Shown in pieces: positions 42,912 through 46,468 of a DNA stretch of 64,000 nucleotides (the first letter of the stretch is position 1; every line of letters begins with the position of its first letter). The position numbers were made by a program, and so were the translations under genes. Source of the DNA: Candidatus Gottesmanbacteria bacterium. GTDB lineage: Bacteria > Patescibacteriota > Microgenomatia > UBA10105 > UBA927. The DNA lies in the NCBI GenBank assembly GCA_903821745.1, contig CAIJMI010000005.1:57051-121050 (forward strand), read 5' to 3'. Under the pieces are notes generated by a model. That model had not been told where the DNA came from, searched no databases, and saw nothing but the letters and a program-made list of their open reading frames with translations.

Positions 42912-43006
42912 AGCTGTAGCGTACTATGGGTTTAATTAAGGATCTTGATAAGATATCTGACATAAATTTGTCAAAATAGTATTTTTCTGGTATACTTCAA
43001 AACTAT

Positions 43007-44224
43007 ATGTCTGGTTTAGCCCAATCTGTCGTTACAAATCAATATGAGCAAGCGGCGCAATCCTGGAAGGCAATGCTTGATATCGGGGATAATCTTTCAA
43101 TTCTATTTTTTCCATATTCAGACCGCGTCCGAAGAATCGAGCAATTCATTTCAGAAAATAAAAAATCACAAAAGGATGAATATCATCGAATATTTTTACA
43201 GATAGATCCACTTCTGCTTAATATTGAAGAAAAAAGTGATTTAATGGATAACATAATCAAGAAGCTAGAAAATAAAAAAATAATCCATAAAAAAGATTCT
43301 TTTGAAGCAGTAATAAAACAACTTGCTGTTAAAAAAATACAAATCGTACTTATAGTACTAACCGCCGACAGTCTTTTACTACAAAGCACTAAATTTTTTC
43401 TTGCCGCTCTTCATGAAATACTATATGAAAATAATCCGTTTATTGTCAGCGTGTGCTGTTTTGAAGTCGACATAACACACCCGCAATATGCTGCAATATT
43501 TCGTCAATACCCACAGTTATTACATAGTATTTTTTACTATCCTTTATACGATAAAAAAGACACGGAGCATTTTATTAAATATGTTGCAAAAAAATGGAAC
43601 GTTGCAATGACGCATCCACAAATTGATCACCTGATAGCAACCTGTGGCGGTAAATGGTGGTTTATTAAAGACGCGGTACGGCAACTTCGATTACAAAAAA
43701 GTTGGAATGAAGATACTGATGGAATGGTATACCGAAAAAACATGGTTATTCAATCTCTATTGTCGTCTGAACGAAGCGTTCTTTTAAAACTATTGACTGG
43801 AAGAAAAATATTTAACGAAGAGGAACAACATAGCATAAATCACCTAATAAAATTACGACTTATTAGTGATGACAATCACCTTCTTGTACCAATTTTAAGA
43901 AAACCTCTTCTTGCAAGTGTGCGATCTGACCATGCATTAACATATGAAAACAATATGGTCTATCTCAATCAAGTACCAATCGGAAGTTTTTTTTCAAGAA
44001 AAGAAATCAGGGCCTTAAAAATACTGGTTTCTCAACCAGGAACAATAATCTCCCGAGAAACGTTAGCGCAAGCAATTTGGCCAGCAAATACAAATGCAAA
44101 TTATTCTGATTGGGCAATTGATCAAATAATTGCGCGCGTGCGAAAACGATTACCAGAATTTGAAATTCCACCTGCCTCCATTAAGTCCATCCGCGGAAAA
44201 GGATATATGTATATTCAACTGTAA
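43007..44224 (+). CDS. hypothetical protein with C-terminal OmpR/PhoB-type winged-helix DNA-binding domain (trans_reg_C) and a ~300-aa uncharacterised N-terminal region
   Basis: The C-terminal ~95 aa (...FSRKEIRALKILVSQPGTIISRETLAQAIWPANTNANYSDWAIDQIIARVRKRL....IKSIRGKGYMYI) match the trans_reg_C wHTH pattern. The N-terminal part has no clear receiver-domain aspartate or other known motif. The gene is AT-rich. Confidence 0.55.
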   Translation: MSGLAQSVVTNQYEQAAQSWKAMLDIGDNLSILFFPYSDRVRRIEQFISENKKSQKDEYHRIFLQIDPLLLNIEEKSDLMDNIIKKLENKKIIHKKDSFEAVIKQLAVKKIQIVLIVLTADSLLLQSTKFFLAALHEILYENNPFIVSVCCFEVDITHPQYAAIFRQYPQLLHSIFYYPLYDKKDTEHFIKYVAKKWNVAMTHPQIDHLIATCGGKWWFIKDAVRQLRLQKSWNEDTDGMVYRKNMVIQSLLSSERSVLLKLLTGRKIFNEEEQHSINHLIKLRLISDDNHLLVPILRKPLLASVRSDHALTYENNMVYLNQVPIGSFFSRKEIRALKILVSQPGTIISRETLAQAIWPANTNANYSDWAIDQIIARVRKRLPEFEIPPASIKSIRGKGYMYIQL

Positions 44225-44228
44225 AACT

Positions 44229-46154
44229 ATGGTAAATCCTGAGATATTCCGAAATCCTGAACCCGACCTTATCTATCAAAGATCGTTGTTTGATGACACA
44301 GAAAGTTTTCTGGTGCGTTCTGAAAATCCCATCTATACGAAATCGCTTCTGTATTCCATAGACGAGGAAATAAAACTTCTTGCACGTTACCCTGATAAAA
44401 CAAATGCAGGCTTTATGCTGGTGGGGAGTCTTGCAAGATATCTATCGGGTCATGGCGATATTGATACCAACTGGAAAATACGAAAAAAAGCCGACAATAT
44501 GAAATATTTTATAAATAATCCCACACATATGCTTGATTTTGCGCGAATATCGGGACCCGATCAAGATATGGATACCACATTCGTATTTAATGACGCGGGC
44601 TCTCTTGAGAGTTTATACGCATATATCAAAGCAAATGTAGGCGATGCAGTAGAAAATATAACATATGAGACGTCGACAAATGGCGTACCTATCCAAACCA
44701 CGTACCTCGACTTCATTGATAAACACAATACAAAAATACACTTAGAATACGGTCCAATCTGCACAAATCCTAATGTTATACACATGACCATGGGATTTTT
44801 TAATGACAAAGAGAGAGTGTTCCATATAGACATCGCTGAATATCCCAAGGACGGCATCCAAGCAGAAAACCAAAATCGACTTGGAGGAAATACCATACTC
44901 GCGCAGGATGTCCGTCTTCCAATTTATGTGAATGGCAATGACGAAACCATGTATACACTTGATTTGAATAAAAGGAATAGCCTTTTTTTCAAAGAACGTA
45001 TAAATATTGATGAAAAACCAATAGATGCAGTAATGGAACTTGCAATCCGCGCGTTACGAATACATTTAATTCACTCAGACCAATTATTTTATGATTCGTC
45101 GTTCACATCATTAACTCCACTGTTTTTTACAAAGGGTAATGGTAACCTATTTGATCTTCGAAAAGGTATTCAAGGTTTTATACGAGCTGGGGAAAAACTA
45201 AGAAAAGAAAAGAATGAATTATTAAAAACAGAACTTCTTATTTGTATGGCCTATGATCCGTATGAAACCGCAAAATTTTTGCATGACACGGGATTATATC
45301 TTCTTTTTCCTGGCCTTCGTACCTTTACTCATGCAGATTGGAAACGTTTATATACATCCAACGCATTTACATTTTTACGGGATGGTACTCCAATAATAAA
45401 TAAAGATGTAAGGTCAATTGAAAATGTACAGTATTCGCATGAATATTTTCAACGCGTAAGGTGGAATAGAAATGTTAATGGCATAAAAATGTTCATTCGC
45501 GCGTTCGGTGAGGTCATGAAAACAAAAATAACTGATCTTGATATAAATAACTATGACCAAATGTACACCCTCTTGTTTACAACGGAATCAACTGCACCTA
45601 GATTCCATAGACAATTTACAAATCTTCCAAATGCACTAATAGATGCACTAAAAACATACCCAAGCGGTGTAACAGAACGTGAAATACAAGAATACGTACA
45701 AAGTATAATAAAACAAAAAATAACGCGCGAAGAATTTCAAGTAGCGTTATTTACATTAAAACAAAAAGGATATATTGACCGTCATAATCGATGGGTTAAT
45801 AGCAATACAAAAGTCGTATTTTATACCCCTCGCTTAAACAAAAATGGACATCTCGATACTACAACAATATCACTCAGACATCTTGAAATAAAAAGAGCTA
45901 TTGCAAATATTCAGGTACCTAACGGCAATGAAACAAAAATGCAAATCTTAGAAGAAATTCTTCAACTCCTCCCTTGCACATCTGTTGAATCCTTTCGTGC
46001 ACTTCGAGAAAATGAACGAAATTTACTAGTAAATCTTATGGAAGAAGAACTAAAAAAACGAAATGATATAACATTCGCAAATGAAGATTTAAAGATATTT
46101 ATAAGTGAAGTACAGCGAGCGTGTATAAATTTCAGCCGCAAAAGAGGTCTGTAA
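44229..46154 (+). CDS. large hypothetical protein (641 aa) with N-terminal Pol-beta/minimal-nucleotidyltransferase-like motif
   Basis: The start is 4 nt after the upstream stop. Residues 60-80, ...AGFMLVGSLARYLSGHGDIDTNWKI..., fit the hG[GS]-x9-13-Dh[DE]h nucleotidyltransferase signature (the MNT consensus GS.AR.....SDIDL). A candidate third acidic residue is in TTFVFNDAG. The ~500-aa remainder has no recognisable motif. Confidence 0.5.
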   Translation: MVNPEIFRNPEPDLIYQRSLFDDTESFLVRSENPIYTKSLLYSIDEEIKLLARYPDKTNAGFMLVGSLARYLSGHGDIDTNWKIRKKADNMKYFINNPTHMLDFARISGPDQDMDTTFVFNDAGSLESLYAYIKANVGDAVENITYETSTNGVPIQTTYLDFIDKHNTKIHLEYGPICTNPNVIHMTMGFFNDKERVFHIDIAEYPKDGIQAENQNRLGGNTILAQDVRLPIYVNGNDETMYTLDLNKRNSLFFKERINIDEKPIDAVMELAIRALRIHLIHSDQLFYDSSFTSLTPLFFTKGNGNLFDLRKGIQGFIRAGEKLRKEKNELLKTELLICMAYDPYETAKFLHDTGLYLLFPGLRTFTHADWKRLYTSNAFTFLRDGTPIINKDVRSIENVQYSHEYFQRVRWNRNVNGIKMFIRAFGEVMKTKITDLDINNYDQMYTLLFTTESTAPRFHRQFTNLPNALIDALKTYPSGVTEREIQEYVQSIIKQKITREEFQVALFTLKQKGYIDRHNRWVNSNTKVVFYTPRLNKNGHLDTTTISLRHLEIKRAIANIQVPNGNETKMQILEEILQLLPCTSVESFRALRENERNLLVNLMEEELKKRNDITFANEDLKIFISEVQRACINFSRKRGL

Positions 46155-46313: not shown

Positions 46314-46468
46314 ACTGTTTATTTTCGTTAACAGTGCCGAGACTAGGAATTGCACCCAGATAACTTGTTTTTCAGACAAGCGCCTTGACTACCTCGGCCA
46401 TCTCGGCAAAGAAAACAGTCTTTATTATAGAATGTCTGTCTGTATCTGCCAATATCTGAAAAAAGATT

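Follow-up and report, generated by a model that had tools for sequence, protein, structure and literature searches.

Bacteria of the candidate phyla radiation (CPR, Patescibacteria) have tiny genomes with few recognisable regulators and many proteins whose annotation gives no function. The two genes described here, gene 1 and gene 2, each share parts with known systems. OmpR/PhoB response regulators have in common with gene 1 a C-terminal Trans_reg_C winged helix, and the usual targets of OmpR-type domains are direct repeats, not inverted ones. STAND/AAA+ switch regulators (MalT/LAL type, and SARPs such as AfsR) are built like gene 1 from such a module joined to a DNA-binding output domain. 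In MalT this output domain is a LuxR-type HTH, unlike in gene 1; in the SARPs the OmpR-type domain is N-terminal and combined with an NB-ARC module, whereas it is C-terminal in gene 1. Gene 2 resembles the class II nucleotidyltransferases. Their motif D (EDxxR) provides the nucleotide-templating Asp and Arg, of which the Asp templates the selection of C and A. A literature search for the gene 1-gene 2 pair in CPR bacteria returned nothing relevant.

We propose that the pair is a vertically inherited Microgenomates operon which encodes an autoregulator and a divergent, active nucleotidyltransferase derived from class II. As a whole, this proposal has in our judgement slightly less than an even chance of being correct.

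The gene pair and its chromosomal context

Both genes are located in a window of 64 kb, i. e. the whole stretch of DNA that was analysed (Table 1). That they are co-directional and separated by a spacer of 4 nt, as an earlier note on this DNA had described, was verified from the ORF coordinates. The frame of gene 2 is open further 5' up to a TTG at 44130, and the ATG position is the start in all 8 homologues. Searches from the sides of both genes found the two ORFs next to each other or overlapping at about 14 independent loci, in agreement with the earlier description of a tightly coupled two-gene unit. From the gene 1 side, an ORF of the gene 2 superfamily followed immediately 3' in L001, L005, L007, L008, L014 and L017-L020; from the gene 2 side, the pairing was found in L097 and L098 as well.

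Table 1. Features of the locus (positions in the window)
Feature	Position	Strand	Remarks
Candidate operator of gene 1	42958..42973	.	Perfect palindrome TGACATAAATTTGTCA = TGACA-N6-TGTCA; overlaps -35 hexamer
Promoter-like site	42968..42996	+	TTGTCA-17-TATACT; TG precedes -10 hexamer; consensus scan score 10 of 12
Gene 1	43007-44224	+	405 aa, from ORF list
Gene 1, aa about 10-305	43034..43921	+	Nucleotide-binding-domain-like alpha/beta core, helical lid, winged helix; Arch_ATPase / Orc1-Cdc6 / NB-ARC type (predicted)
Gene 1, aa 311-402	43937..44212	+	OmpR/PhoB-type winged-helix DNA-binding domain
Gene 2	44229-46154	+	641 aa counted from ATG, from ORF list
Gene 2, aa 57-250	44397..44978	+	Nucleotidyltransferase 'head' (predicted)
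Gene 2, aa 251-460	44979..45608	+	Helical 'neck/body' (predicted)
Gene 2, aa 461-540	45609..45848	+	PadR/MarR-like winged-helix domain (predicted)
Gene 2, aa 541-641 and stop codon	45849..46154	+	C-terminal helical region (AF2 secondary structure); most variable part
tRNA-Phe	46334-46407

In three genomes the pair has the same place in the core gene order (UvrA-Transglut-UvrC-holin-CofD-SecG-SBP-CAP, pair, tRNAs-AcylT3...Ddl), and the tRNA series itself is syntenic across them. The tRNA genes for Gln, Gly, Val and Leu are present 3' of the pair as previously listed; the tRNA-Phe gene had been overlooked. More distant genomes contain the pair in other conserved contexts, with no tRNA within 10 kb. 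Among the syntenic genomes, orthologues of the neighbours and core genes are 55-84% identical, those of gene 1 77-80%, which is the conservation level of UvrA or Ddl, and those of gene 2 36-54%. Gene 2 is the fastest-evolving gene of the neighbourhood; its identity to all relatives drops to about 35% in one genome, where the flanks are conserved. Such fast evolution relative to the neighbours is unusual for a housekeeping RNA enzyme.

The GC content of gene 1 (0.346, z -2.3) is the minimum among the 52 ORFs of the window, and that of gene 2 is 0.358 (z -1.8 in the same set; ORF mean 0.397, sd 0.022). Thus the pair, which had been called AT-rich, does lie below the ORF mean, but the dip is modest at about 2 sd, and a comparable mild dip is present in the orthologues of L001, L008 and L007. 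As it is common to orthologues, the dip is a standing property of both genes and not a sign of recent acquisition.

The earlier note had placed the pair in an accessory region and had seen in it the architecture of a horizontally acquired regulatory or defence-type module, such as a nucleotide-signal synthase or a nucleotidyltransferase toxin with its own regulator. In the style of AbiEi/AbiEii this would be a toxin-antitoxin module of a winged-helix regulator/antitoxin and an NTase toxin. A winged-helix protein directly 5' of an NTase-like protein in a probably autoregulated operon does resemble type IV AbiE. The divergence of gene 2 amid conserved flanks is the pattern of conflict genes, the cargo is swapped for a methyltransferase in some genomes, and the GC content is mildly low. 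However, PADLOC-DB yielded no family for either protein at E <= 1, no PHROG matched gene 2, and two scans of IMG/VR detected no gene 2 relatives on viral contigs; where gene 1 had matches, they were due to the winged helix alone. No integrase was found among the neighbours of the pair, and no att-like repeats around the cassette beyond chance matches. The features of a tRNA-integrated genomic island (variable presence, integrase, direct repeats, atypical composition) were not observed here. Chromosomal context and tRNA order are instead fixed across genomes, the pair also exists in conserved tRNA-free contexts, the conservation of gene 1 equals that of UvrA or Ddl, and the GC dip is shared by orthologues. 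The earlier note had itself named a conserved core-genome context in relatives as evidence against its view, and three genomes provide this context. We therefore regard a defence or toxin-antitoxin module as very unlikely. Judged from gene order and conservation, the pair is a vertically inherited, lineage-specific core operon of Microgenomates (CPR) and not a horizontally acquired defence island. In these genomes, tRNA adjacency and a mild GC dip thus predict horizontal acquisition poorly.

The regulator and its candidate operator

According to its AF2 model (pLDDT 89.9), gene 1 is a transcription factor composed of an AAA+/STAND-like module and an OmpR/PhoB winged helix. The C-terminal Trans_reg_C domain was already recognised in the earlier note; it matches PF00486 at aa 330-401 (E 5e-13; 49 bits versus a cutoff of 26), and PF00486 is found in every one of 51 gene 1 homologues. 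The N-terminal ~300 aa, which had been considered motif-free, are so for sequence searches, but in the model the fold is clearly AAA+/STAND, with an alpha/beta nucleotide-binding domain, a helical lid and a winged helix. It shows structural likeness to the archaeal Arch_ATPase proteins PABY2304 and SSO1545. The designation as an atypical OmpR/PhoB-type protein proved appropriate: there is no receiver domain and no Response_reg match, and in the model the N-terminal 305 aa take an AAA+/STAND form.

Gene 1 has neither a Walker A (GxxxxGK[ST]) nor a Walker B (hhhhD[DE]) motif; in their places stand the degenerate sequences FFPYSDRVRR and IVLTADS. Canonical Walker motifs are present solely in distant members of the family (e. 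g. GVRGSGKTKF, GMPGIGKTDL, FFVGEFDE). In the gene 1 clade a conserved FFP(K/Y)(T/S)DRxRR has taken the place of the P-loop, and thus ATP-driven switching is doubtful. In our reading, gene 1 is a one-component transcription factor in which the ATP-binding P-loop was remodelled into a different conserved motif. Its family is a broad Microgenomates transcription-factor family on an AAA+/STAND chassis, with a series of P-loops from canonical to remodelled.

The palindrome TGACA-N6-TGTCA occurs a single time in the window, versus 0.09 occurrences expected by chance. It is kept 30-70 nt 5' of gene 1 homologues in about 20-22 loci, including loci without gene 2, and in L097 both half-sites have changed symmetrically (TGACG-N6-CGTCA). 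In L003 and L015, where a methyltransferase takes the place of gene 2, it is retained as well. This indicates that the palindrome travels with gene 1. An extra TTGACA-like half-site lies upstream. With 1 mismatch allowed, the window contains 3 sites versus 2.4 expected, which gives no evidence of further operator sites in the window.

The -10 hexamer of the predicted promoter ends 10 nt before the ATG of gene 1, implying a leaderless or near-leaderless mRNA, and from this promoter the operon would be transcribed. The same layout (-35 within the palindrome, then TGnTATACT/TATAAT, then about 10 nt to the ATG) is repeated in L001, L003, L007, L008, L017-L020 and L099, and the window, L001 and L008 share 79% identity in the intergenic region. 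The operon is probably autoregulated through the candidate operator overlapping its own -35. The protein bound there is presumably that of gene 1, which, sitting over its own -35, would be the autoregulator of the operon and most simply a repressor. Alternatively, the palindrome could be bound by the PadR-like domain of gene 2. The candidate operator and leaderless-promoter motif is precise, deeply conserved and directly testable.

The nucleotidyltransferase-like protein

Gene 2 has 8 close homologues and belongs to a family of 69 representative clusters among 1.84 billion proteins, with lengths of 600-817 aa. No Pfam, NCBIfam, PADLOC or PHROG model matches it; in Pfam, PolyA_pol (PF01743) gave no match even at E <= 1. 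PDB profile searches with two gene 2 family alignments likewise gave no sequence match linking it to PolyA_pol. The sole matches in the sequence searches, one to troponin C and one of a winged helix to the retron St85 effector, were rejected as spurious. Based on its AF2 model (pLDDT 92.5, pTM 0.92), which has the head and neck fold of class II nucleotidyltransferases, gene 2 is a divergent class II nucleotidyltransferase-like protein extended by a winged helix and a C-terminal helical domain.

The head begins with strand 57-65 and G66-S67-x-A-R, followed by two inserted helices (78-91 and 98-108), strand 112-120 with D113 and D115, and strand 195-204 with D201; it also contains the motif B-like residues K/R217...T222...Q226-D227. 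In the neck/body, E270-x3-R274-x2-R277 compares with class II motif D (EDxxRxLR) and DPYETAKFLHDTGLYLLFPG with a segment of Cca. Over the full length, hhalign gave no significant alignment of gene 2 with Cca, with PcnB or with a class II profile of 10 sequences (probability below 1%). Restricted to the domain, the profile alignment to a 10-sequence class II profile had P 0.006; in it the catalytic DxD corresponds to D113/D115, motif B to R217/T222 and motif D to E270/R274/R277. Local hhalign alignments are best exactly in the neck/body, the best-conserved segment among orthologues.

The peptide LVGSLARYLSGHGDIDT, quoted in the earlier note for a Pol-beta-superfamily NTase, is present in gene 2, and the NTase-like head including G66-S67 stands, but the catalytic DxD had been misassigned. 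D77/D79, which had been taken for it, are variable even among 7 close homologues (GNGDTKT, GNGDPRT, GCGKTET and others), and the relaxed motif hG[GS]x9-13Dx[DE] occurs by chance in 1 of 53 ORFs, unrelated to gene 2. The conserved D113/D115 lie 46 aa after GS, on the strand after the two-helix insertion, and hhalign pairs them with D21/D23 of Cca; the spacing far exceeds the canonical 9-13, which speaks against the class II reading. Nor does the model favour the suggested kinship with MNT, CD-NTase, SMODS or Cas10 proteins; structurally it comes closest to the CCA-adding/poly(A) polymerase enzymes of class II.

Family-wide, D113 is found in 55/55, D115 in 54/55 (98%) and D201 in 87% of the sequences. 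R217, R274 and R277 are invariant in 55 gene 2-superfamily sequences, which share only about 20% identity, and E270, D343, P344 and D353 are conserved to at least 90%. In the GSxAR motif, G66 (41/54) and S67 (38/54) reach 70-75%. These conserved residues sit on the expected structural elements of the model, and the C-terminal helical region is 24-53% identical to orthologues. Although E270, R274 and R277 align with E-D-P-L-R-x-L-R of motif D, its Asp is Leu in the protein of the window and not conserved in the family. With this base-reading Asp lost, the nucleotide specificity of gene 2 should differ.

The missing motif D Asp and the incompletely conserved GS motif would also fit a pseudoenzyme, in which the class II scaffold serves ligand binding or oligomerisation and the PadR-like winged helix makes gene 2 a second DNA-binding (co-)regulator with gene 1. 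The winged-helix domain is confidently modelled, PadR/MarR dimers bind palindromic operators of this kind, and a non-catalytic protein would be more tolerant of the rapid evolution of gene 2. Yet the conservation of D113/D115/D201 and R217/R274/R277 at such low identity is a typical active-site pattern, and the operator persists in loci without gene 2 (L003, L015, L016), so that gene 2 is not needed to explain it. On balance a pseudoenzyme seems unlikely.

The lineage must possess a CCA-adding activity, since an encoded CCA is missing from 10 of the window's 13 tRNA genes. Gene 2 abuts the tRNA cluster, and no canonical ORF of the type GGxVRD...DxD / RRDxTxN was found in the related loci examined or in the window, which covers 64 kb of a genome of roughly 1 Mb. 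That gene 2 is the highly divergent housekeeping CCA-adding enzyme is nevertheless highly improbable. Canonical class II CCA-adding enzymes are present in Patescibacteria according to a survey including 16 such genomes (bioRxiv 10.64898/2026.05.29.728689). Furthermore, the gene 2 family is small and replaced by a methyltransferase in some close relatives, and gene 2 evolves much faster than core genes, lacks the EDxxR Asp and is under a dedicated regulator.

Possible function and relation to described systems

The exact slot of gene 2, behind the same regulator and operator, is taken in L003, L012 and L015 by a class I SAM methyltransferase with a length of about 300 aa. These methyltransferases match generic class I SAM-MTase families only, and a suspected Hen1-like identity was therefore rejected. 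Partner proteins of the L025/L036 type, suspected by eye to be gene 2 homologues, were dismissed at an hhalign probability of 0.8%. Pfam gave no matches for ten further large partner proteins of distant gene 1 paralogues; two C-terminal fragments produced only sub-threshold matches to CTP_transf_like. Distant gene 1-family loci also adjoin other large proteins with a HIGH-type nucleotidyltransferase signature.

Nucleotidylylation and methylation could be alternative modifications of one target. Gene 2 might then be a small-molecule or protein nucleotidylyltransferase (detoxification, resistance, cofactor modification), with gene 1 sensing the compound in its remodelled, conserved STAND-like pocket, much as in cassettes of a regulator and a modifying enzyme, and the HIGH-type proteins beside distant gene 1-family loci would be in line with this. 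We consider it quite unlikely, because the closest structures of gene 2 are RNA-specific class II polymerases including the neck helix, not ANT/Lnu-type or GlnE/GlnD-type enzymes. In addition, the replacement methyltransferases are generic, and no transporter or other resistance genes are linked at the loci examined. A more speculative and distinctly unlikely scheme is a CPR-specific signalling or conflict module of a so far undescribed type, in which the class II-derived enzyme makes or tags a nucleic-acid or nucleotide product and the STAND-like regulator reads this product with its remodelled, non-ATPase pocket. The enzyme gene, NTase-like or methyltransferase, would be hypervariable, exchangeable cargo downstream of a regulator and an operator that are ultra-conserved and have a fixed place in the core genome.

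We thus return to an active, class II-derived enzyme under an autoregulator. Gene 2 appears to have kept the class II head and neck, with a plausible metal-binding triad (D113, D115, D201) and an arginine-rich neck helix. It could be an active nucleotidyltransferase that works without a template on the end of a nucleic acid, most likely on the 3' end of some RNA that is not bulk tRNA. If it is active, the reach of class II nucleotidyltransferases extends past tRNA and mRNA tailing; if it is inactive, regulation has here recruited an RNA polymerase fold. In either case, folds are now assigned to two dark CPR protein families.

Compared with OmpR/PhoB response regulators, gene 1 has neither a receiver domain nor a phospho-acceptor Asp, its N-terminus is AAA+-like, no histidine kinase is located nearby, and the candidate operator is an inverted repeat. 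Unlike MalT/AfsR-type regulators it comprises just 405 aa, without a sensor or repeat arm. Type IV AbiEi/AbiEii and MNT-type modules share with the pair the order of a winged-helix autoregulator and a Pol-beta-superfamily NTase-like protein in one operon. In contrast to these, gene 2 is far larger and of another NTase class, PADLOC is negative, and location and inheritance are those of a core operon.

Gene 2 is to be compared with the class II nucleotidyltransferases (bacterial/eukaryotic CCA-adding enzymes, A- and CC-adding enzymes, poly(A) polymerase I). Their signatures have co-linear counterparts in gene 2: G-[GS]-x-[AV]-R, a DxD on strand 2 (putatively D113/D115), a K/R-R...T motif, a neck helix of the form E-x3-R-x-L-R and a segment L-R/H-D-x-G...[FI]-P-[GE]. 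Gene 2 differs by a 35-aa two-helix insertion between GS and DxD, an enlarged sheet (strands 141-204), the loss of the motif D Asp, a dedicated regulator and fast evolution. In the model, the tRNA-binding body and tail are replaced by the PadR-like winged helix and a new helical domain. The gene 2 family is small and seems to be an extreme branch of the CCA-adding/poly(A) polymerase enzymes, bearing a new tail for DNA/RNA binding.

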